Source: Candidatus Falkowbacteria bacterium (lineage in GTDB: Bacteria; Patescibacteriota; Patescibacteriia; UBA11705). From it: DNA of 64,000 bases. Shown one piece after another: positions 3,601 to 58,803 of the stretch. The DNA lies in the NCBI GenBank assembly GCA_003518055.1, contig DOZJ01000006.1, positions 136,912 through 200,911 on the forward strand. Reading direction: 5' to 3'. Within the stretch, counting starts at the first letter, position 1. Every line of letters starts with the position of its first letter. Below the pieces are notes generated by a model. That model had not been told where the DNA came from, searched no databases, and saw nothing but the letters and a program-made list of their open reading frames with translations. The position numbers and the translations under genes are program-made.

Positions 3601-3652
3601 GGGTCGGGGGTAGGGTTTAGGGAACCATTGTGATGATTTTTGCCTAAAATAA
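3601..3652. repeat. Promoter-proximal repeat copy L (GGGTAGGGTTTAGGGA...TTGTGATGATTTTTGCCTAAAAT)
   Basis: About 50-nt near-identical copy of the sequence at 4033-4084. Each copy sits just upstream (minus sense) of a consensus promoter. Confidence 0.6.
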
Positions 3653-4032: not shown

Positions 4033-4084
4033 GGTAGCGGGTAGGGTTTAAGGGAGAGTTGTGATGATTTTTGGCTAAAAATTT
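4033..4084. repeat. Promoter-proximal repeat copy R
   Basis: GGGTAGGGTTTAAGGGAGAGTTGTGATGATTTTTGGCTAAAAA, a near copy of 3601-3652. Confidence 0.6.
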
Positions 4085-4099
4085 GGTGTTTTATTTACT

Positions 4100-4133
4100 C
4101 CCGTAGTGGTCGGTCGCGACCGACCACTACGGG
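4100..4133. promoter_or_regulatory. Perfect 34-bp palindrome CCCGTAGTGGTCGGTCG|CGACCGACCACTACGGG
   Basis: Exact dyad symmetry and GC-rich. Immediately upstream of the dus promoter. No flanking T-run, so it is probably not a simple terminator and may be an operator. Confidence 0.45.
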
Positions 4134-4218: not shown

Positions 4219-4246
4219 TTACCCTTCGAGAACCTCAGGGTGACAA
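4219..4246. repeat. Hairpin repeat H1 (CCCTTCGAG-N-CTCAGGGTGACAA)
   Basis: Same about 28-nt imperfect-hairpin motif recurs at 4708-4737 (inside dus) and, reverse-complemented, at 49881-49910. Confidence 0.55.
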
Positions 4247-5243: not shown

Positions 5244-5352
5244 CTGGAATTACAAAAGTTTGGCGGGTAGGTTGGTTTTACAAAAGGACACAATAACCGC
5301 TGAAGTGTGATAGTTGGTGATTTTTACAAAAATTTGGCGGGGTAACTGGAAC

Positions 5353-5490
5353 TACCCACCTACGCTCTTACTTCCACCTACGCATAACGCTTATGCCTTC
5401 GCTAAAGCTATGGCATACAGGTCGGTGGACAGGGCGTAGAGCTACGGCGCCTGCCTGCCGGGAGGCAGGGGCGCGGCGGAAGTAACGAGG
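5353..5490. repeat. GC-rich dispersed repeat R1 (CCCACCTACGC / GCTAAAGC / CGGCGGGCAGG family)
   Basis: Shares the CCCACCTACG, GCTAAAGC and CCTGCCGGGAGGCAGG/CGGCGGGCAGGC cores with copies at 9570-9690, 38322-38440 and 49880-50021. Here it is frameshifted and non-coding. Confidence 0.6.
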
Positions 5491-9030: not shown

Positions 9031-10245
9031 ATGAAAATCGGCATTGATGCCTCGCGGGCGAATAAGCCCATAAAGACCGGCGTGGAGTGGTATTCATACC
9101 ATATAATTCAAGAACTCAAAAAAATTGACAGCGACAATCAATATTTTTTGTATACCAACACGCCGCTTGATATGGGGTTGGAGAAGTGTCCGGGGAATTT
9201 CAAAGAGGTGTGGCTCAAATGGCCGCTTCGCTATATGTGGACTTTGATTCGGCTCAGCTGTGAAATAAAATTCGGGAAAACCAAACCGGATTTGTTGTTT
9301 GTGCCGGCTCATACGCTGCCGCTGGTTAATCCATCCAAATCGGTGGTAACCATTCATGACATCGGATATGAACGCTTTCCGGATTTGTACAAATGGCCGC
9401 AAAGATTTTATCACAAATGGAGCTCAAGATTTGTAAAAAAACACGCGACAAAAATTTTGACCGTGTCGGAATTTTCCAAAAAAGAAATAATGGAAGTGTA
9501 TGGCGTGCCGGAGGAAAAAATCGCGGTGGTTTATAATGGGTATGATAAAGATGTATATGGGTTAAGGGGGCGTGAGGGGGCTGAAGAGGGTGGGGTTACG
9601 AAATTACCCACCTACGCTGATGCTCCGGCGGGCAGGCAAAACATTACCCGCCTACGCATGGGCTACGGCGGGCAGGCAAAAAGTTACGAAAACAAGACTG
9701 CTGTAAATGGGCAGTATATGATGTTCGTCGGCCGGTTGGAGGCGAAGAAAAATATTGAGCGTCTGCTTGACGCGTTTGTGACTTTCAAGGCCAAAAATCC
9801 TGAGGATAAACACAAACTGGTGTTGGTTGGCAAGCCAAGGCCGGAGTTTCAGCAAAAGATGATGCGGCTCGCCCTTGAAAATAAAGATAATGATATTATT
9901 CATTTTGAATATTTGAAGGCGGCCGAGGTGGCGTCGTTGTTGCATCGGGCGGATTTGTTTGTGTTTCCGTCGTTGTATGAAGGTTTTGGCATTCCGGTGC
10001 TGGAAGCCATGGCCTGCGGCTGTCCGGTGATTTGCGCCAATACGACATCTTTGCCTGAAGTCGCGGGTGAAGCCGCGATTATGTTTGATCCCGAACGGGT
10101 GGATTTGATCGTAAAGGCGATGGAAACCGTGCTTTTTAATCCCACCGTTGCGGTGGCGTTGAAGGAAAAAGGTTTGGAGCGCGTCAAGGCGTTTTCATGG
10201 AATAAAGCAGCGAGGGAGATAAAGGAGATTATGGAAAAAATATGA
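9031..10245 (+). CDS. Glycosyltransferase family 4, carrying an in-frame repeat insertion
   Basis: C-terminal EGFGIPVLEAMACGCPVI...E GT-B retaining-GT motif. A low-complexity insert (GLRGREGAEEGGVTKLPTYADAPAGRQ...GYGGQAK) is encoded by repeat R2. Confidence 0.8.
   Translation: MKIGIDASRANKPIKTGVEWYSYHIIQELKKIDSDNQYFLYTNTPLDMGLEKCPGNFKEVWLKWPLRYMWTLIRLSCEIKFGKTKPDLLFVPAHTLPLVNPSKSVVTIHDIGYERFPDLYKWPQRFYHKWSSRFVKKHATKILTVSEFSKKEIMEVYGVPEEKIAVVYNGYDKDVYGLRGREGAEEGGVTKLPTYADAPAGRQNITRLRMGYGGQAKSYENKTAVNGQYMMFVGRLEAKKNIERLLDAFVTFKAKNPEDKHKLVLVGKPRPEFQQKMMRLALENKDNDIIHFEYLKAAEVASLLHRADLFVFPSLYEGFGIPVLEAMACGCPVICANTTSLPEVAGEAAIMFDPERVDLIVKAMETVLFNPTVAVALKEKGLERVKAFSWNKAAREIKEIMEKI
9570..9690. repeat. 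GC-rich dispersed repeat R2 (tandem half-units) in frame within the GT4 gene
   Basis: TTACCCACCTACGC...CCGGCGGGCAGGCAAAA occurs twice in tandem, preceded by a G-rich GGGGGCGTGAGGGGGCTGAAGAGGGTGGGG leader. Confidence 0.6.
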
Positions 10246-11476: not shown

Positions 11477-12553
11477 ATGGGACGTAAAATTATTTTAACC
11501 GGATTAATTTTAATGTTGTCAGTGACTCTCACCGGCTGTATTTCATTTGGGAAAAAAGAAACAGCGGCTGGCAGTGGTGTGGGCGCAGTTGCCACCGGCG
11601 ACAGAGGAGATACTTGGGTTGCGAAATATAAATTGATGACTCCCGGCGCGATTGAGGCCAATATCGGCGGTGTTAATGTCACGACGATCGAGATGGATCC
11701 GACTGATACTAACGCGATTTATATGGGTACGCGCGGTAATGGTTTGTATTATTCTTATAATGGCGGTGACGGGTGGGATCACGCGGATGTGTTGTCCAAA
11801 GTCGCGGCCGGACAGATCAATTCAATATCGATTGACGCCAAAGATAAATGCAGCGTGTACGCGGCGGTCACCAATAGAGTGGTTAAAACCAGTGACTGCA
11901 ATCGAACGTGGCAGCAGGTGTTTAACACGGCTAAAGCTGATGAGGCGGTAGTCGATGTGGTGGTGGATTGGTTTAATACTTCTATCGTTTACGCGGCGGC
12001 AAAAGACGGTTCAGTGTATCAGAGTGCTAATGCCGGCGCCAGCTGGGCTAAATTGGCGGATGTTGAGCAAGAAATCAAAGAATTGGAAATCAGTTCAAAA
12101 GACAGCCGCGTGTTATTTATGACAACTGTGGCGGCCGGATTGTACAAATCAACTGATGGCGGTAAAAGCTGGCTGAGTATGAATGAGCGGATGGAATCTT
12201 TGGGCGGCAAGTATCGCAATGGTTACGCGGTGGCAGTGTCGAAAAATAATCCGGGCAAAGTATTTTATCTGTCGCGTCTCGGGCTGCTTCAGAGTTTTGA
12301 TAACGGTGAAACTTGGTCAAAAATCGCATTATTAACCGGTGAAAACGAAGCGACGTTCAATGCTCTCGATGTTTCAGTCAAAGATGATAATTTGATCTTT
12401 TTGGTCAGCGGCAGTACACTTTATCGCACGGTGAATGGCGGTCAGACGTGGGAAACGAGGAAGCTTCCAAGCACGGCAATTTTAACTGATTTGGATGTTC
12501 ATCTGGCAAATGACAAGCTGTTGTTTGTCGGGTTCAGTGCGCCGCAGAAGTAG
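11477..12553 (+). CDS. Lipoprotein with BNR/Asp-box beta-propeller repeats
   Basis: Lipobox LTGC. Repeated S-x-D-x-G-x-(S/T)-W motifs (TDGGKSW, NGGQTW, DNGETW, NAGASW). Confidence 0.55.
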   Translation: MGRKIILTGLILMLSVTLTGCISFGKKETAAGSGVGAVATGDRGDTWVAKYKLMTPGAIEANIGGVNVTTIEMDPTDTNAIYMGTRGNGLYYSYNGGDGWDHADVLSKVAAGQINSISIDAKDKCSVYAAVTNRVVKTSDCNRTWQQVFNTAKADEAVVDVVVDWFNTSIVYAAAKDGSVYQSANAGASWAKLADVEQEIKELEISSKDSRVLFMTTVAAGLYKSTDGGKSWLSMNERMESLGGKYRNGYAVAVSKNNPGKVFYLSRLGLLQSFDNGETWSKIALLTGENEATFNALDVSVKDDNLIFLVSGSTLYRTVNGGQTWETRKLPSTAILTDLDVHLANDKLLFVGFSAPQK

Positions 12554-12555
12554 CG

Positions 12556-12592
12556 TTTAGCGTATAGGGTATAGCGTATAGAGTGAAATAAT
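12556..12592. repeat. AGCGTTTAGCGTATAGGGTATAG repeat copy
   Basis: Same motif forms the arms of a long imperfect palindrome at 34795-34915. A weaker copy lies at 59330-59390. Confidence 0.45.
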
Positions 12593-34794: not shown

Positions 34795-34915
34795 TTGTTA
34801 TTATAAGAGCGTTTAGCGTTTAGGGTATAGGGTATAGTGATTAGATACTTACGCTATATTCATTATATATACAGTTATCTTATTATAAGCGCTAACCGCT
34901 ATACGCTAAACGCTT
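34795..34915. repeat. Long imperfect palindrome built from AGCGTTTAGCG/TATAGGGTATAG repeat arms
   Basis: Left arm GAGCGTTTAGCGTTTAGGGTATAGGG. Right arm CGCTAACCGCTATACGCTAAACGCT, followed by TTTTTT. Confidence 0.5.
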
Positions 34916-34919
34916 TTTT

Positions 34920-36005
34920 ATGATATTCAAACTCAAGAAAAATATTACGGTGGCTGTGGGTATGAGCGGCGGTGTAGATTCGTCAGTCGCGGCGGCACTA
35001 TTGAAAAAACAAGGCTATAATGTCATTGGCGTATATTTTATTACTTCAGCCCAGACTACCAGCGGCAAAATTAGGGATAACATCTGCTGCTCGCTCGAAT
35101 CGATGATGGATGCGCGTAAAGTCGCTCAGCAGCTTGGGTGTAAATTTTATACTATTAATTTGCGGACCGTTTTTAAACAAAAAGTTTTTGATGATTTTAT
35201 TCATGAATATGAATCCGGTCGAACGCCCAATCCGTGTATTCATTGCAATAAATTCGTAAAATTTGGCGAGGCGTTGCAGAAGGTAAAGGCGATTGGGGCT
35301 GATTATTTGGCGACCGGCCATTATGCTCGGGTCAAAAAGTCGCGGGATGGAAAGTTTCATCTATACGAGGGCAAGGATAAAAAAAAGGATCAAACATATT
35401 TTTTGCATTCATTAACGCAAGAGCAGTTGGCGCATGTCATTTTCCCCTTGGCCAAACTGATCAAACCGCAAGTTAGAAAATTGGCGGCCAAGTTTAAGTT
35501 GCCGACGGCCAGTAAAGTTGAATCACAGGAAATTTGTTTTATTCCTGACGGTGATGTGGCCAAATTTTTACGCGAGTATATTGAATTCAAGCCGGGGGAT
35601 ATCATTGATGTTGAAACAAAAAATAAAATCGGCCGACACGATGGGCTGCAGCAGTATACGGTTGGGCAGAGAAAAGGTATCGGTCTGCCCGGTGGCCCGT
35701 GGTATGTCGCGAAATTGGATATAAAAAATAGTATCTTGTGGGTGACAACCGATCTCAATGTGATAAATAAAAGTTTCATGCGGCTCAAAGATATTCATTG
35801 GATTACCGGTGAACCGAAATTACCAACCAGAGTTACGGTAAAAATACGTTACAATTCAGAGCCAGTGGCCGTAAAAGTAAACCCAAAACAAAACGGTTTT
35901 TATCTTGTAGAATTCAAAAAACCGCAAAAAGCTATTGCCCCGGGTCAATCGGCCGTATTTATGAAAAAAAATGAGTGTCTGGGTGGAGGGATAATCGATG
36001 AATAG
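34920..36005 (+). CDS. mnmA: tRNA-specific 2-thiouridylase MnmA
   Basis: PP-loop SGGVDSS, catalytic Cys and a C-terminal beta-barrel. 361 aa. Confidence 0.85.
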   Translation: MIFKLKKNITVAVGMSGGVDSSVAAALLKKQGYNVIGVYFITSAQTTSGKIRDNICCSLESMMDARKVAQQLGCKFYTINLRTVFKQKVFDDFIHEYESGRTPNPCIHCNKFVKFGEALQKVKAIGADYLATGHYARVKKSRDGKFHLYEGKDKKKDQTYFLHSLTQEQLAHVIFPLAKLIKPQVRKLAAKFKLPTASKVESQEICFIPDGDVAKFLREYIEFKPGDIIDVETKNKIGRHDGLQQYTVGQRKGIGLPGGPWYVAKLDIKNSILWVTTDLNVINKSFMRLKDIHWITGEPKLPTRVTVKIRYNSEPVAVKVNPKQNGFYLVEFKKPQKAIAPGQSAVFMKKNECLGGGIIDE

Positions 36006-36509: not shown

Positions 36510-36587
36510 GAACGAAGAAAATCGTTCTTTTTTGTTTGAACTTTGAATGTGGTGGTGGTATGATTTTGTATCCCCAAAGGAAAACGG
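36508..36587. repeat. Direct repeat DR-a (terminator hairpin GAACGA..TCGTTC + T-run + RBS module)
   Basis: About 80% identical over about 78 nt to DR-b at 37093-37170. Confidence 0.5.
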
Positions 36588-36694
36588 TTTTTATCTCGTA
36601 GAATTCAAAAAATCGCAAAAAGCTATTGCCCCGGGTCAATCGGCCGTATTTATGAAAAAAACGAGTGTCTGGATGGAGGTATTATAAATGAATA
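36576..36694 (+). pseudogene. Duplicated 3' end of mnmA (about 120 bp, frameshifted fragment)
   Basis: More than 90% nucleotide identity to 35884-36003, with a 1-nt deletion in the A-run. Located about 570 bp downstream of the intact mnmA stop. Confidence 0.6.
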
Positions 36695-36804: not shown

Positions 36805-37086
36805 ATGTCAGGATGTCAGTGTCATTGTGCTACGGTTGAAGTTCAGACCAGAATTCATTTTTTCTTTAAGGAAGATGAGGTCACGATCAATTTTCAACCT
36901 AGAAAGGCTGACCCTGTGGTTGAGGATCGCAATCTTGATCGGGCGTGGTCTATGGCGCCGGAATATGTTAAAGCGGTTGTTTTTTATGATCTGGTAGTGG
37001 CGACGACTCAAGAATTGAACGAAGCATGTCATAAGGTTGTCTGTACCAGCCAGCCGATTCGAGTGTCGCAGGCCTTTACTCGGTGA
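36805..37086 (+). CDS. Small Cys-rich hypothetical protein
   Basis: 93 aa with MSGCQCHC N-terminus. Own promoter TTGACA...TAATAT, RBS AAAGGAGGGG, and terminator GAACGATAAGATCGTTCTTTTT. Confidence 0.35.
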   Translation: MSGCQCHCATVEVQTRIHFFFKEDEVTINFQPRKADPVVEDRNLDRAWSMAPEYVKAVVFYDLVVATTQELNEACHKVVCTSQPIRVSQAFTR

Positions 37087-37092
37087 TGATTT

Positions 37093-37170
37093 CAGAACGA
37101 TAAGATCGTTCTTTTTGTTTGACATTGATAAGTGGTCGTGGTATGGTTGTCTGTTCCCAAAGGAAGGGGG
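37093..37170. repeat. Direct repeat DR-b
   Basis: Second copy of the terminator-RBS module. Confidence 0.5.
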
Positions 37171-37177
37171 AAAAACG

Positions 37178-38218
37178 ATGACAACGAATATTGCGAGCGG
37201 ACTGAAGGGCGTTATTGATAATTTTAATGAAAAACCGTTTTTAATTGTGGTTACACAAGTTGATCCTGATGCTTTGGGTTCTGCTTGTGGTTTGGCTGAA
37301 ATTATTCGGATTCTTGGCGGTAAAGTGGAATTGGTTTATTGCGGATATGTTGCTCATCCGCAGAATCGAGCCATCTTCAATCGATATAATTTGGAAACGG
37401 TTTTTAAGTCAATTGCGGATTTTACGACCTTTGACGGCTATAATGTTTGTTTGGTTGATTCGAGTACAATCGGAGACGTGAGGCTGGGACCGTTTAAGCG
37501 GACGTTCAAACCGGTAATCGTAATCGATCATCATCGTGGTCATGATTTTGAGTGTCCGGAGGTTCCATATTGTTTGATTGAAGAGGTCGGAGCTTGCGCC
37601 ACGTTAATCGTGGAAATCATCAATGAATTGAACTTGGTTTTTGATGAGAGCAAGAAATATTTGAGTTACCTGTTGGCATTGGGAATTTATACTGATACCA
37701 AGAGCTTGATTAGCGCAGGGGAGAGAGATCGTACGGCTTTTGGCGAAATTACCAAGAATATTTCTGAAACTGAACTTTCAAAGATGATTGAGTATCCTCT
37801 GCCCGATACATATTATCGGAATATGAAGCATGCGCTTCAGAGAATGGAGCAGCGGGGATCTCGGGTGTTGACCAACATCGGTTATATTAAGCCGGATGAA
37901 GGTGATGATCTTTCAACAATTGCTGATTTGTTAATTCGCCATGACGGTGTCAGTTTGGTTGTGGTTTGGGGTGTGATTGGCGATAAGGTGAGAATCAGTT
38001 CTCGCAATCGGGACATTTCTGTTTCTTTACTGACTTTTATGAAAGAGCGGTTTGGTGAACGTTCAGGTGCCAAGTTGACGCCTGATGGCCGAGGCGAGGG
38101 AGGGGCGATTCTTGATTTGAATTTCTATACTTTCTGGTTGTGTGACACCAATAGGAGCGTAGTTGCTGATGCCGTTAATTTGAAGCTGCAATCGCTAGTA
38201 TTCCCGACAGAAGAATAG
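37178..38218 (+). CDS. DHH/DHHA1 phosphoesterase, NrnA-like nanoRNase / pAp phosphatase
   Basis: DHH motif VIVIDHHRGHD and glycine-rich DHHA1 motifs. 346 aa. Confidence 0.6.
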   Translation: MTTNIASGLKGVIDNFNEKPFLIVVTQVDPDALGSACGLAEIIRILGGKVELVYCGYVAHPQNRAIFNRYNLETVFKSIADFTTFDGYNVCLVDSSTIGDVRLGPFKRTFKPVIVIDHHRGHDFECPEVPYCLIEEVGACATLIVEIINELNLVFDESKKYLSYLLALGIYTDTKSLISAGERDRTAFGEITKNISETELSKMIEYPLPDTYYRNMKHALQRMEQRGSRVLTNIGYIKPDEGDDLSTIADLLIRHDGVSLVVVWGVIGDKVRISSRNRDISVSLLTFMKERFGERSGAKLTPDGRGEGGAILDLNFYTFWLCDTNRSVVADAVNLKLQSLVFPTEE

Positions 38219-38321
38219 ATAAGACGTAATTAAGAGCTAAAAATGCTCTTTTTTCATTTGCAAAACTTAGTAGAATAAGATAGAATGTTTGTATTAACTA
38301 CAACTTGTCACATTGAGTTTG

Positions 38322-38440
38322 CCGAAGGGTACGACATGCTTCCCGCCTACGTTACACCCTATGCTAAAGCTTCGGGTGTCAAGAAAACTCCGGCGGGCAG
38401 GCGAGAGCCTTCCACCTTCACTCAAGTTTCGGTGGACAAG
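38322..38440. repeat. GC-rich dispersed repeat R3, in frame upstream of alaS
   Basis: ATGCTTCCCGCCTACGTT...GCTAAAGC...CCGGCGGGCAGGCGAGAGCC. Encodes MLPAYVTPYAKASGVKKTPAGRREPS, contiguous in frame with AlaRS. Confidence 0.6.
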
Positions 38441-38457
38441 CAGTATGACAAAAAGAA

Positions 38458-40309
38458 TATGACGACTCACGAGCTCAGAAAAAAATATTTAGACTTTTTT
38501 AAAAGTAAAGGGCATGCCATCATTCTTTCCGCCTCTTTGATTCCGGAAAATGATCCAACGACATTATTTACCGGTTCCGGTATGCAGCCGATGGTGCCAT
38601 TTTTGCTTGGGCAAAAACATCCGCTTGGGACAAGAATTGCGGATTCGCAGCGGTCTTTTCGAACGCAAGATATAGAAGACGTGGGCGACAATAGACACAC
38701 GACTTGTTTTGAAATGCTTGGTAACTGGAGCCTCGGAGATTATTTTAAAGCAGAGCAAATTCCGTGGATGTTTGAATTTTTGACAGAAGAATTAAGGCTT
38801 GATCCCAATCGATTATACATTACCGTCTTTGGCGGCCAGAAGGAAATCGGGATTGACCGTGATGATGAAGCGGTTGAATTGTGGCAAGAGCAATTCAAGA
38901 AAAAAGGGATTGACGCTAAGGCGCTCGATGATGCGAAAGTTGATGGTATGCGCGACGGCCGGATTTTCTATTATGATGAAACCAAAAACTGGTGGAGTCG
39001 AGCTGGTATAACTTCAAATATGCCGGTCGGTGAACCGGGTGGCCCCGATTCGGAGATATTTTGGGATTTTGGCGTTGAAAGAAAAATACATGAAAATTCT
39101 ACTTACAAAAATGAAGAATGCCATGTAAATTGCGATTGCGGCCGATTCGTGGAAATCGGGAACAATGTTTTTATGCAATATATTAAAGCTGAAACTGGTT
39201 TTGATGAGTTATCGCAGCGAAACGTGGATTTCGGCGGTGGATTGGAACGCATGACAATGGCCACGATTGATTCACCGGATATTTTCCATATTGATTTGTT
39301 TCAAGTGGCGATAAAAAAACTGGAAGAACTCAGCGGAAAAAAATATAATGATAATGTTGAGGATGACAAAGCCTTTCGAATAATTGCCGATCATCTGAAA
39401 GCGGCGACCCTCTTAATTTATGATGGTGCGATTCCATCAAATGTGGATCAAGGTTATTTCACCCGCAGATTAATTCGACGGTCAATCCGTTATGCCAATC
39501 AATTGGGTATTACTAAACATTTTGCGATCGAAATAGTGGGATCATATATTGAATATTATTCTCAGGTTTACAATATTGCAGAAAAGAAAAATTTTATTAT
39601 TCAAGAAATTCTCAAAGAAGAAGAAAAATTCAGCAAAACTTTGGAGCGGGGAATCAAAGAGTTTGAAAAAATGGCGGAGAAAAAACAGATGAGCGGCGAG
39701 GAAGCGTTTGTTTTGTTCTCAACCTATGGCTTTCCATTTGAAATGACAGAGGAGTTGGCCAAGGAAAGCGGATTTGAAATTGACAGAGTCGCCTTTGATG
39801 CCAAATTTGCCAAGCATCAGGAACTCTCCCGTCAAGGCGCGGAAAAGAAGTTTAAGGGTGGGTTGGCTGATCATTCGGAGAAAACCACAAGATTGCATAC
39901 CGCCACTCATTTGCTTCATGCGGCGCTCCGAAAAGTTTTGGGCGATCATGTGTTTCAGAAGGGCAGCAATATTACGGAAGAACGGCTTCGATTTGATTTT
40001 TCCCATCCGGAAAAGATGACACCAGAGCAGCTTGAACAAGTTCAGACGTTGGTTAACGGCTGGATAAAAGCCGATTATCAGGTGAGCTGTGAGGAATTGC
40101 CTTACGATGAAGCCAGAAAACGAAATGTGATGGGTTTGTTTGACGATAAATATGGTGATATAGTAAAAGTGTATTCGGTTGGCGATATCTCAGCTGAAAT
40201 GTGTGGCGGACCGCATGTTACTCATACCGGTGAGCTTGGACAGTTTGAAATAAAGAAAGAAGAAGCCAGTTCGGCCGGTGTCAGAAGAATTAAAGCAATA
40301 TTAAATTAA
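38458..40309 (+). CDS. alaS: Alanyl-tRNA synthetase (catalytic + editing domains, no C-Ala domain)
   Basis: Class II core (FTGSGMQP, GNWSLGDYFK) and editing-domain HxxxH...CGGxH. The upstream in-frame ATGs at 38285/38336 would add a repeat-encoded extension. Confidence 0.8.
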
Positions 40310-41404: not shown

Positions 41405-41779
41405 ATGGCTTATGATTTTTATGATTTAGATACCTGGAAAGTTGCTCATAGCTTTGTGATGGATATATACGAGTTGTCAAAATGTTTACCTAATGATGAA
41501 CGTTTTGGTTTAATTAGTCAGATTCGGCGTGCAGCTGTTTCTATAACTTCTAATATCGCTGAAGGGCATTCTCGCTTTTATTTTAAAGATAAAGTAAGAT
41601 TTTATTATTATGCAAGGGCTTCTGCAGCGGAAGTGTTGAGCCAACTTTTTATTTTTCGGGATTTGGGCTATTTGAATGAAAGCGAAATGACTAAAATGCT
41701 AGAAAAATGTAATAGAGTTAGAATGTTAATAAATGGCATGATTAGGGCAATCGAAACAGAAAATCAGAATGAGGTTTAA
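41405..41779 (+). CDS. Four-helix-bundle protein (the TIGR02436 / 23S rRNA intervening-sequence protein family)
   Basis: LISQIRRAAVSITSNIAEGHSRF...ARASAAEV matches the family signature (L.SQ.RRAAVSIPSNIAEG...ARGS..E). Confidence 0.8.
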   Translation: MAYDFYDLDTWKVAHSFVMDIYELSKCLPNDERFGLISQIRRAAVSITSNIAEGHSRFYFKDKVRFYYYARASAAEVLSQLFIFRDLGYLNESEMTKMLEKCNRVRMLINGMIRAIETENQNEV

Positions 41780-49879: not shown

Positions 49880-50021
49880 TTGTCACCCTGAGGAACTCGA
49901 AGGGTGAGTCTTTAAACGCTTGTCTATGCTTCCCACCTACGTTAAAACTTCTGCCTTCGTTAAAACTCCGGCAGACAAGCCGGCGGGCAGGCGAGAGCCT
50001 CAGCATGACAAGTTTACTTAA
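49880..50021. repeat. GC-rich dispersed repeat R4 with intact 31-codon ORF (49926..50021)
   Basis: Contains ATGCTTCCCACCTACGTT...CCGGCGGGCAGGCGAGAGCC. Encodes MLPTYVKTSAFVKTPADKPAGRREPQHDKFT, homologous to the R3-encoded extension of AlaRS. Confidence 0.55.
49881..49910. repeat. Hairpin repeat H3 (reverse complement of H1/H2)
   Basis: GTCACCCTGAGGAACTCGAAGGGTGAG. Directly abuts repeat R4. Confidence 0.55.
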
Positions 50022-50026
50022 TTATT

Positions 50027-50740
50027 ATGCATGAACAGCCCACACAACAAAATATCAAGGAAGCGTTATTGAATTTGCCGTCGGTCAAAAAGGTTTTTGA
50101 GCAGCTGGGATATTTTGTCTCTTTGTATCATGAGGCGGAAGAAGGAAAGAAAAACGAGGTCTTGGGGCGGATGAAAAAGTTTTTGCCCCAATTTGATGTC
50201 TTGTTGGATAAAATGGCGGCGGCGGCACATTATTCGATTGATGATTTTGTTAATGATTTGATGGCGACGGATCGGCTTGAAGCTTTGAGACAAGCGTTGG
50301 CCGGCGCTGAAAATAAACGGGATTTTTCCGTCGGTGTCTTTAATATTGATTACAATCCGGCTGAGCATCGTTATGTTTTACATATGCCGCCATATCAGGG
50401 GCAAGATTTTCAGGCCGACTTTACAAGATCCATGTATTTATTGGCGGAGAAGATGGCCGCGGATGAAAAGGTTGAATTGGTTGAGGGCTATTCTTGGATT
50501 TTTAATATTCCTTTTGTCGGCGATTTGTTTAACAATGCCAGATTTGAGGATACAAGAAAAACGGAGCGTAACATGAATACGCGCGGCGAGTTTTCCGGTT
50601 CTCAGCGGTCAGCTTTATTATTCAACAAAAAATCACTCCGAGAGTATTTGCAAACAGGAGAAATGCCCATCACCACTGGACGGGTTTATTTGAGGGATGA
50701 TTTTTTGCGTGATTATTTAGAACCGACAAAAAAACAATAA
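50027..50740 (+). CDS. Hypothetical protein
   Basis: 237-aa ORF. No recognisable domain. Confidence 0.4.
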   Translation: MHEQPTQQNIKEALLNLPSVKKVFEQLGYFVSLYHEAEEGKKNEVLGRMKKFLPQFDVLLDKMAAAAHYSIDDFVNDLMATDRLEALRQALAGAENKRDFSVGVFNIDYNPAEHRYVLHMPPYQGQDFQADFTRSMYLLAEKMAADEKVELVEGYSWIFNIPFVGDLFNNARFEDTRKTERNMNTRGEFSGSQRSALLFNKKSLREYLQTGEMPITTGRVYLRDDFLRDYLEPTKKQ

Positions 50741-58615: not shown

Positions 58616-58803
58616 TTGACGAAATATTTATCTTTTGCTAAAATATAAATACAAATTAATTCCGCAGACTGCAAGTGTCGATAGACTTAAATATCTTGCA
58701 TAGGAACGAATAAGAGCTTACGGTCTTTGAGCCGTTAGTTTTTAGAAGATAAGTCTGCGGGGAACCGGAGATATTTTTTTACTAATTATTCATTTTTAAC
58801 AAT
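58616..58803 (+). promoter_or_regulatory. rplJ promoter (TTGACG-17-TAAAAT) and structured 5' leader (L10-leader-like autoregulatory element)
   Basis: About 150-nt untranslated leader enclosed by a long-range pairing CCGCAGAC (58662-58669) / GTCTGCGG (58753-58760), consistent with an L10(L12)4-binding leader. Confidence 0.45.

Follow-up and report, generated by a model that had tools for sequence, protein, structure and literature searches.

A family of short hairpin repeats in a Candidatus Falkowbacteria genome whose open reading frames are probably incidental

Results

Reading frames through the repeats

The DNA examined here (the window) is a 64-kb stretch of contig DOZJ01000006.1 from a Candidatus Falkowbacteria genome (Patescibacteria, or candidate phyla radiation (CPR)). 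Copies of a short, GC-rich palindromic repeat are located upstream of the alanyl-tRNA synthetase gene alaS (copy R3), after mutL (copy R4), and in frame within other genes. A first-pass annotation had noted that peptides can be read through these copies, and had proposed either that the repeats are selected to be tolerated within open reading frames (ORFs) or that they carry a conserved translatable frame, as would a small-peptide gene that is being dispersed.

The translations themselves were reproduced with the coordinates first given. From ATG 38336 the R3 frame reads MLPAYVTPYAKASGVKKTPAGRREPS and continues in frame into alaS, that is, MLPAYVTPYAKASGVKKTPAGRREPSTFTQVSVDKQYDKKN followed by MTTHELRKKYL... 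(MTTHELRKKYLDFFKSKGH...), with no stop codon; the same ORF is already open from ATG 38285 and is 674 aa long by mechanical ORF call. The homologous ATG in R4 opens a 31-codon ORF (49926-50021, ending in TAA at 50021) with the product MLPTYVKTSAFVKTPADKPAGRREPQHDKFT, and the GT4 gene (9031-10245) includes LPTYADAPAGRQ, its translation containing the related peptide ...KLPTYADAPAGRQNITRLRMGYGGQAK... The repeat family is not a chance match, as CCGGCGGGCAGGC with at most two mismatches occurs 6 times in the window against 0.55 expected, and CCCRCCTACGY 7 times against 1.68. However, R3 can be read through without a stop in half of its six frames, including two of its three sense frames, so that the prior for openness in the alaS frame is about two-thirds and the open frame is unremarkable. 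In the hairpin unit itself, five of six frames are without stop codons. The second unit in the GT4 gene is read as RLRMGYGGQA, in a frame that differs from that of the first, so the notion of a conserved frame fails already within the window.

Conservation of structure rather than peptide

The basic unit is ~30 nt long and comprises a 6-bp stem (often CCCGCC/GGCGGG), TAC, a variable and covarying apical mini-hairpin, and T(T/A/C)C, followed by the second arm of the stem and CARG as the tail. Such units lie nested one in another or are joined end to end. A covariance model of the unit, used to locate copies in the window, placed them at 9607 and 9647 (GT4), 49950 (nested in R4), 5392 (nested, in a composite after dus), and 38411 (the third R3 unit), with a weaker nested unit near 38358. 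R3 and R4 are four-part composites made of a "head" hairpin (TTGTCAC..TGAG...), an outer unit, an inner unit in the loop of the outer one, and a tail ending ...ATGACAA. The inner units share the architecture of the outer units, with stems that differ but are fully compensated (ACACCC/GGGTGT and TCTGCC/GGCAGA). The composites are flanked by the inverted repeats TTGTCA...TGACAA and CATGCT...AGCATG, and the "start" ATG of the element is part of the CATG-containing terminal inverted repeat.

Covariation was tested on 42 distinct units with 500 shuffles and slid controls. In these units, 94.4% of cells were in standard pairs and 8 of 9 pairs had changed on both sides; none of the 500 shuffles reached the observed pairing scores, and the slid controls paired at only 30-51%. 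With a stem-agnostic pattern, 66 of 69 matches were complementary at 5 or more of 6 positions, and the stems fell into 12 distinct pairs (e.g. TCTGCC/GGCAGA and TATGCC/GGCATA). The apical stems differ in length and covary freely (GCTCC/GGAGC, GTCCC/GGGAC), with a loop that is often C(TTCG)G. No corresponding signal was seen at the level of the peptide. In the frame of the first-pass annotation, entropy at codon positions 1, 2, and 3 was 0.63, 0.58, and 0.50, the third position being the least variable, contrary to what coding sequence would show. Translation of the 42 units yields 37 distinct peptides, and codon differences counted from the commonest unit were 36 synonymous against 116 non-synonymous. 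Pfam and NCBIfam searches of the repeat peptides gave no match. The conserved feature is thus the nucleic-acid hairpin structure and not the peptide.

Empty sites and in-frame insertions

The closest homologue of the GT4 protein (P0122, 80% identity) is without either unit. Its DNA reads AAATTA^CAAAATATTA^CAAAAGGTTACGAAAAC, with the sequence after the second caret beginning CAAAAGG, and each caret marks an insertion of exactly 30 nt in the window. In the AlphaFold model of the GT4 protein (mean pLDDT 83.7), values below 50 are found only at residues 180-219, the insert-bearing interdomain loop. The GT4 units are genuine in-frame insertions, and each adds 10 translated residues, which in this model lie in a disordered loop between domains. 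The insert-bearing allele was found in several independent assemblies, and the gene is annotated only as "hypothetical protein". Both units in the GT4 linker lie at the equivalent position in successive TTACRAAAA repeats.

The concatenated open frames of R3 and R4 were used to query 5.8 billion protein clusters, and a single protein was matched, the cysteine desulfurase P0243 (locus L224). In this protein ILPAYVTPYAKASGVKKTPAGRREPSTFTQVLVDKQYDKK separates residues that are neighbours in cysteine desulfurases of solved structure. Its DNA has a 120-nt block in common with positions 38336-38455 of the window, identically bounded but with the "start" ATG replaced by ATA. The possibility that the residues KQYDKK are native desulfurase sequence that travelled with the element was considered and rejected, because the motif ATGACA(A/C) ends all composite copies and because, minus the 40-residue block, the GVL-to-HFITT loop is within one residue of the length in a solved homologue. 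Another copy lies in frame in the linker of a different protein (L214). In a relative with 75% AlaRS identity, the syntenic 22-kb region contains no elements. Presence and absence with exact borders are shown at three kinds of site.

Distribution, length, and orientation of copies in other genomes

The exact core pattern was scanned in the species representatives of GTDB. Among the matches listed, to which the counts of core copies below refer, the pattern was found in more than 119 stretches, and its carriers include many CPR classes, Acidobacteriota, Bacteroidota, Ignavibacteria, Omnitrophota, Planctomycetota, Verrucomicrobiota, Proteobacteria, Chlorobi, and one archaeon. Once the two common centre lengths, 8 and 38 nt, are set aside, the remaining copies divide evenly among the three modulo-3 classes (23, 26, and 19). 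Genic and intergenic copies were counted in low-GC loci only, where long ORFs are reliable; 52 copies were intergenic and 19 lay within long ORFs. The length was divisible by three in all 19 genic copies but in only 30 of the 52 intergenic ones (Fisher p = 3e-4). Genic copies in these loci are read in all three sense and in two antisense frames (8, 4, and 6 in s1, s2, and s3, and 4 antisense). It is evident that genes filter for stop-free insertions of 3n length.

These counts separate the ideas that the first-pass annotation had put forward. Tolerance within ORFs is borne out by the 3n length of every genic copy, by the five of six stop-free frames, and by the exact in-frame insertions relative to empty sites. 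A conserved translatable frame is contradicted: the other copies show no frame conservation, the outcome that the first-pass annotation had itself named as refuting its proposal, with all five open frames used in genes, and no third-position excess is present.

Orientation was mixed. Of the intergenic copies in other genomes, 9 are co-oriented with both flanking genes, 15 are opposite to both, and the rest are mixed, and the core copies that abut tRNA-Gly or tRNA-Pro genes are antisense to the tRNA. Approximately 12 core copies overlap the 5' end of such a tRNA gene by ~5 nt (L007, L013, L014, L035, L065, L089, L090, L092, L097, L098, L100, and L105; e.g. in L089, 73-103 against tRNA-Gly 1-77). 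At these loci tRNA positions -1 to 5 supply GGCGGG, the 3' arm of the hairpin. A second CCCGC lies beyond the far end of the element in 11 of the 12 and looks like a tRNA-preserving 5-nt duplication; it may instead be a partial tandem unit rather than a target duplication.

An identical 31-mer, CCCGCCTACGCCAAGGCTTCGGCGGGCAGGC, is found in Omnitrophota, Kerfeldbacteria, Acidobacteriota, and other Patescibacteria metagenome-assembled genomes (MAGs), and nearly all carriers of the core unit are MAGs. The few isolate matches (Mycobacterium, Streptomyces, and Zimmermannella) look like chance in GC-rich DNA. A metagenome scan with GGCGGGCAGGCGAGAGCC returned 96 stretches, nearly all of them chance matches in GC-rich genomes, with L214 the only true relative. 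Only chance-level partial matches were found in 72,556 plasmids and 50,697 phage records from cultured hosts, and a scan of IMG/VR gave one match; no virus or plasmid link was found in these collections. Hairpin units often lie within short tandem direct repeats of 7-10 nt that start with CAR, like the unit tail (CAAGTAA, AGAAGAC, GAGCCTT, CAAAGCT...); such micro-arrays are seen at L113, L116, L018, L042, L031, L081, L068, L037, L004, and L002, and at 9590-9700 of the window.

The start of alaS

The open frame through R3 raises the question of whether AlaRS is translated from 38336 or 38285, which would give a real N-terminal extension and an enzyme longer by 41-58 residues. The frame is open from 38285 into alaS, the 674-aa form is the longest-ORF call in JGI and ENA sources, and the same block is translated within other proteins. 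A promoter-like sequence at 38258-38286, if used, would make 38336 the first AUG of the transcript. Position 1 of the Pfam profile, however, aligns with residue 63 of the 674-aa ORF. All of the 120 best AlaRS homologues cover only 91% of the ORF and begin with MTTHELRQKYLDFF or a close variant (MTTHELR/MTTNELR), none carrying the extra residues; this start corresponds to M59 (ATG 38459), and the NCBI annotation likewise has a 616-aa form (HCC23685.1). At the orthologous locus, alaS follows a 53-nt AT-rich spacer with no repeat. In the modelled leader, the mean unpaired probability is 0.69 around ATG 38459 and 0.35 around ATG 38336. The -10 box of the promoter-like sequence overlaps ATG 38285, so a transcript from there would start downstream of that codon, with R3 as the alaS 5' leader. 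The motif GAAGGG, 6 nt upstream of ATG 38336, carries little weight because a Shine-Dalgarno-like motif is seen in only 4 of 35 long genes of the window. Taken with the unremarkable openness of R3, these points make an extended enzyme improbable. R3, lying between a putative promoter and the conserved start at 38459, most likely serves as a structured 5' leader instead of extending the N-terminus, the start codon actually used by alaS being inferred from these comparisons. Several genes, among the 35 long genes, have a TATAAT-like box 6-8 nt before the ATG (e.g. 10390, 25156, and 55265), which suggests leaderless or very short-leader mRNAs.

The 31-codon ORF in R4

A further alternative is that the repeat is a dispersed small-protein gene under peptide selection, with the consensus MLP[AT]YV...KTPAGRREP. 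R3, R4, and L214 have ATG-(C/G)TT-CCC in a common frame, and codon-usage log-odds in that frame are slightly positive (0.10-0.13 per codon), yet below the gene mean of 0.31. The exact 31-aa ORF has never been called as a gene by any pipeline on record, and it matched no family in Pfam or NCBIfam. A search of 1.84 billion representative proteins returned one real relative, P0241 (51 aa), from a sister strain whose sequence matches the window exactly over the upstream 180 nt. Inside the element there are four codon differences, all of them non-synonymous and none synonymous, and the stop differs (51 against 31 aa). One of these changes, GGCGGG to GGTGGG, repairs an A·C mismatch of the CCCACC stem. 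The other match, P0242, is a translated CRISPR-like array. The only match among the 5.8 billion clusters was the desulfurase, with ATA for ATG; other copies are in other frames, or intergenic with lengths not divisible by three; and the ATG belongs to the CATG-containing inverted repeat. Together with the missing third-position excess, this makes a dispersed peptide gene very improbable. R4 is intergenic, and its 31-codon ORF, judged from sequence comparison, appears to be incidental.

The sister strain (L126, 480-620) is identical to the window up to R4 and then fully divergent within and after the right end of R4 (window 49999-50740). A more distant relative (L123, 19310-19550) is without R4 and without the 237-aa ORF at 50027-50740. 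The divergence in L126 and the absence in L123 place R4 at the edge of a strain-specific island. The 237-aa ORF gave no family match, and PHROGs and PADLOC returned nothing for it. As for P0242, this 358-aa public "protein" is a three-frame translation of the CRISPR-like array (FQSTPANKPAGD / FNPRPPTNQRAT / VSIHARQQTSGR repeated), an instance of repeats in protein databases.

Discussion

Nature of the repeats

The repeats are probably selfish or structural hairpin DNA of the type of REP elements or the Rickettsia palindromic elements, with peptides that arise by incidental translation and not from a dispersed peptide gene. The elements would act as non-autonomous, duplicative DNA that nests into itself and inserts at new sites. 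GC-rich palindromes have few stop codons, and with five of the six unit frames open they would yield apparent peptides; inside genes, only stop-free copies of 3n length would survive, and the terminal inverted repeat contains an ATG by happenstance. Copying would depend on some hairpin-recognising activity, probably that of an enzyme or process whose substrate is hairpin DNA in single-stranded form.

Several observations weigh against this interpretation. No transposase or other mobilising gene was identified in the window, where not all ORFs were scanned. Compared with the empty sites, no duplication was seen at the two GT4 insertion sites, which is atypical for classic MITEs (miniature transposable elements with inverted repeats). 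The three composites that can be checked within genes (the L224 desulfurase, the L214 linker, and the R3-alaS ORF) are all read in the frame of the first-pass annotation, and the GAAGGG upstream of the R3 ATG, in frame with alaS, would allow some extended translation.

Alternatively, the hairpins are, or have become, cis-regulators at the RNA level, acting in mRNA stabilisation or transcription attenuation or, in the case of R3, as an alaS leader with a tuning effect on translation. RNA-level regulatory roles of this sort are established for REP elements in E. coli. In the orientation shown, C(UUCG)G or UNCG is a frequent apical loop, the core units of the window are all sense to their operons apart from one small hairpin (5449-5469), and the R3 leader, directly upstream of alaS, has a folding energy of ~-49 kcal/mol (z = -2.5). 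Because the complement of C(TTCG)G folds into a stable DNA mini-hairpin as well, the loops cannot tell RNA from DNA. Against an RNA role, the only Rfam match in the whole window at gathering thresholds was the ribosomal protein L10 leader (58644-58788; RF00557, 56.4 bits), both repeat loci remaining unmatched even at E = 10; in particular, no T-box or other known aminoacyl-tRNA synthetase leader RNA was found at 38250-38480 at that threshold. The inconsistent orientation of intergenic copies, together with the antisense placement at tRNA genes, argues for a DNA-level element over a sense-RNA element, and we consider the regulatory explanation unlikely. A sense-strand RNA element, which the UUCG loops had suggested, was likewise dropped when orientation to flanking genes proved to be mixed. 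A secondary role as mRNA structure is possible.

That the repeats are an assembly or binning artefact of MAGs is extremely improbable. The near restriction of core units to MAGs, and the lack of a convincing match in the plasmid and phage records of cultured hosts, would be in keeping with it. However, the insert-bearing GT4 gene and the 674-aa alaS ORF recur in several independently assembled samples, the inserts preserve the reading frames of conserved enzymes, the stems covary, and a 30-nt repeat should not be able to make chimeric joins at the k = 127-141 of these assemblies.

A more far-reaching proposal can be offered only tentatively, as on balance it is rather doubtful: the 30-nt unit would be an undescribed, horizontally spreading hairpin family, near-unchanged across many phyla of mostly uncultivated bacteria, whose precise, duplication-free insertion into its own loops, in frame into essential genes, and into the first five bases of tRNA-Gly and tRNA-Pro is driven by a hairpin-specific (single-strand DNA) activity. 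The peptides would then be a by-product, and the element a new counterpart of REPs and Rickettsia palindromic elements that extends across phyla. No description of this family was found in the literature on palindromic repeats in CPR or on MITEs in Patescibacteria, and searching by sequence words gave only unrelated primer matches.

Comparison with known repeat families

Among the closest known repeats are the repetitive extragenic palindromes (REP/BIME, REPINs) of Enterobacteria and Pseudomonas, which are mobilised by RAYT tyrosine transposases (PMC3116915, PMC3479197). These are likewise short (~30 nt), GC-rich, imperfect palindromes, present in many copies, in mosaics with other short motifs, and mostly intergenic. 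A GTAG is present here on the complementary strand (CCTACG), but inside the hairpin by the 3' arm, whereas the GT[AG]G of REP is outside and 5' of the stem. REPINs are inverted doublets, whereas the units here are nested or in direct tandem; and REP distribution is extragenic, whereas many copies here are intragenic. No RAYT gene was found, no search aimed at one having been made. REPIN-RAYT systems are described in the RAREFAN preprint (10.1101/2022.05.22.493013) as mostly vertically inherited; on that description they would contrast with the present family, in which the same 31-mer is unchanged in many phyla.

The Rickettsia palindromic elements are fused in frame to housekeeping genes (Ogata et al. 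2000, summarised in PMC10969869). They too are ~100-150-bp palindromic repeats (compare R3 and R4), lie in frame in unrelated housekeeping genes, which they leave functional, and add a peptide at a surface or loop. Their host is of a different phylum from Falkowbacteria, and the likeness is one of behaviour, with no homology claimed. In contrast, the unit here is only 30 nt long, is used in all five open frames, and is built up by the nesting of smaller hairpins.

MITEs (Correia, ERIC, BOX, Nezha, Chunjie, and QMITE; PMC10969869) are likewise small, non-autonomous, structured, polymorphic in presence and absence, and occasionally fused to ORFs. MITE-like terminal inverted repeats are seen in R4 (TTGTCAC..TGAGG / CCTCA..TGACAA) and R3 (TTGTCA / TGACAA). 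Target-site duplication is a hallmark of MITEs, whereas none is visible at the two GT4 empty-site comparisons. MITEs are usually AT-rich, whereas these elements are GC-rich in an AT-rich genome, and no parent insertion sequence is known.

Single-strand transposition of the IS200/IS605 type, as in IS608, inserts 3' of TTAC without duplication. It is also hairpin-based, and both GT4 inserts lie directly after (A)TTA(C) with no duplication, a likeness drawn from only two sites, both in one gene and each a tandem copy of TTACAAAA. IS608-like TTAC targeting, suggested by these sites, was rejected, as no conserved TTAC was found in the 5' flanks of 127 copies; nor was a TnpA gene identified in the window. 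The elements are best placed within the wide class of short palindromic repeats, as a new member outside any named family.

Consequences for annotation

In CPR genomes, such repeats give rise to false N-terminal extensions and may also lead to spurious small ORFs; as annotations, the 674-aa AlaRS call (JGI/IMG, ENA) and the 31-aa ORF are best viewed as hazards of this kind. Copies that lie in frame amount to insertion experiments made by nature, marking loops of essential enzymes (GT4 and cysteine desulfurase) that tolerate 10-40 extra residues. As the elements differ between close relatives, one of them at a strain-specific junction, they may serve as strain markers and are possible recombination sites. 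The peptide observation itself is of low interest, and it is the cross-phylum hairpin family behind it that is worth follow-up; if that range holds, it poses the question of which conserved activity could duplicate a 30-nt hairpin across hosts so unlike each other.

Other features of the window

The repeat modules and neighbouring features are collected in Table 1.

Table 1. Positions of the repeat modules and adjoining features in the 64-kb window
Feature	Position	Strand	Remark
Terminator-like hairpin and T-run after the upstream DHH-family gene (37037-38218)	38232-38250	+	consensus scan only
Sigma-70-like promoter, TTGCAA-17-TAGAAT	38258-38286	+	9/12 consensus match only; -10 box overlaps ATG 38285
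R3 "head" hairpin module (TTGTCACATTGAGTTTGCCGAAGGGTACGAC)	38305-38335	+	left TTGTCA pairs with TGACAA at 38446-38451
120-nt R3 block (ATGCTTCCC...GACAAAAAG)	38336-38455	+	identical borders in cysteine desulfurase gene (L224)
R3 outer unit, CCCGCC...GGCGGGCAGGC	38342-38402	+	
R3 nested unit, ACACCC/GGGTGT	38354-38384	+	
R3 third unit, TCCACC/GGTGGA	38411-38441	+	
alaS coding sequence from the conserved start (MTTHELRKKYLDFF...)	38459-40309	+	616 aa
R4 composite	49880-50012	+	terminal inverted repeats TTGTCACCCTGAGG / CCTCAGCATGACAA
R4 head hairpin	49880-49908	+	
R4 outer unit	49932-49992	+	
R4 nested unit, TCTGCC/GGCAGA	49950-49980	+	
31-codon ORF	49926-50021	+	wholly inside or abutting R4; probably incidental
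30-nt unit in frame in GT4 gene	9607-9636	+	read PTYADAPAGR; not in closest homologue
Second 30-nt unit in GT4 gene	9647-9676	+	read RLRMGYGGQA; not in closest homologue
Intergenic composite downstream of dus, same family	5351-5480	+	unit 5392-5422 (TATGCC/GGCATA) inside TCCACC/GGTGGA
CCTGCC-GGGA-GGCAGG hairpin within the composite downstream of dus	5449-5469		
Isolated head-module copy (TTGTCACCCTGAGGTTCTCGAAGGGT)	4221-4246	-	~30 nt upstream of dus start, opposite strand

Other repeats were also noted. A perfect 34-nt palindrome at 4100-4133, CCCGTAGTGGTCGGTCG|CGACCGACCACTACGGG, is REP-like (GTAG...CTAC), lies between an unannotated ORF and dus, and is single-copy in the window. Also upstream of dus, 48-nt direct repeats of 83% identity (GGTMGSGGGTAGGGTTTARGG...GTGATGATTTTTGSCTAAAA) are found at 3602-3649 and 4033-4080, 431 nt apart. 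Words of the AGCGTTTAGCGTATAGGGTATAG type belong to another repeat family, which forms an inverted pair just upstream of mnmA (34802-34920) and occurs again at 12552-12591. A second copy of the 3' end of the mnmA-like gene (34920-36005) lies ~690 nt downstream with 94% identity, and other fragments are repeated close by; the duplicate pairs are 35877-35970 and 36568-36661, 35965-36004 and 36655-36694, and 36529-36582 and 37112-37165, and the stretch at 36.0-37.1 kb looks rearranged and partly duplicated. Finally, small four-helix proteins resembling bAvd and 23S-rRNA-IVP are encoded beside mutS in the window (41405-41779) and beside alaS in a relative (L120, 2576-2947).

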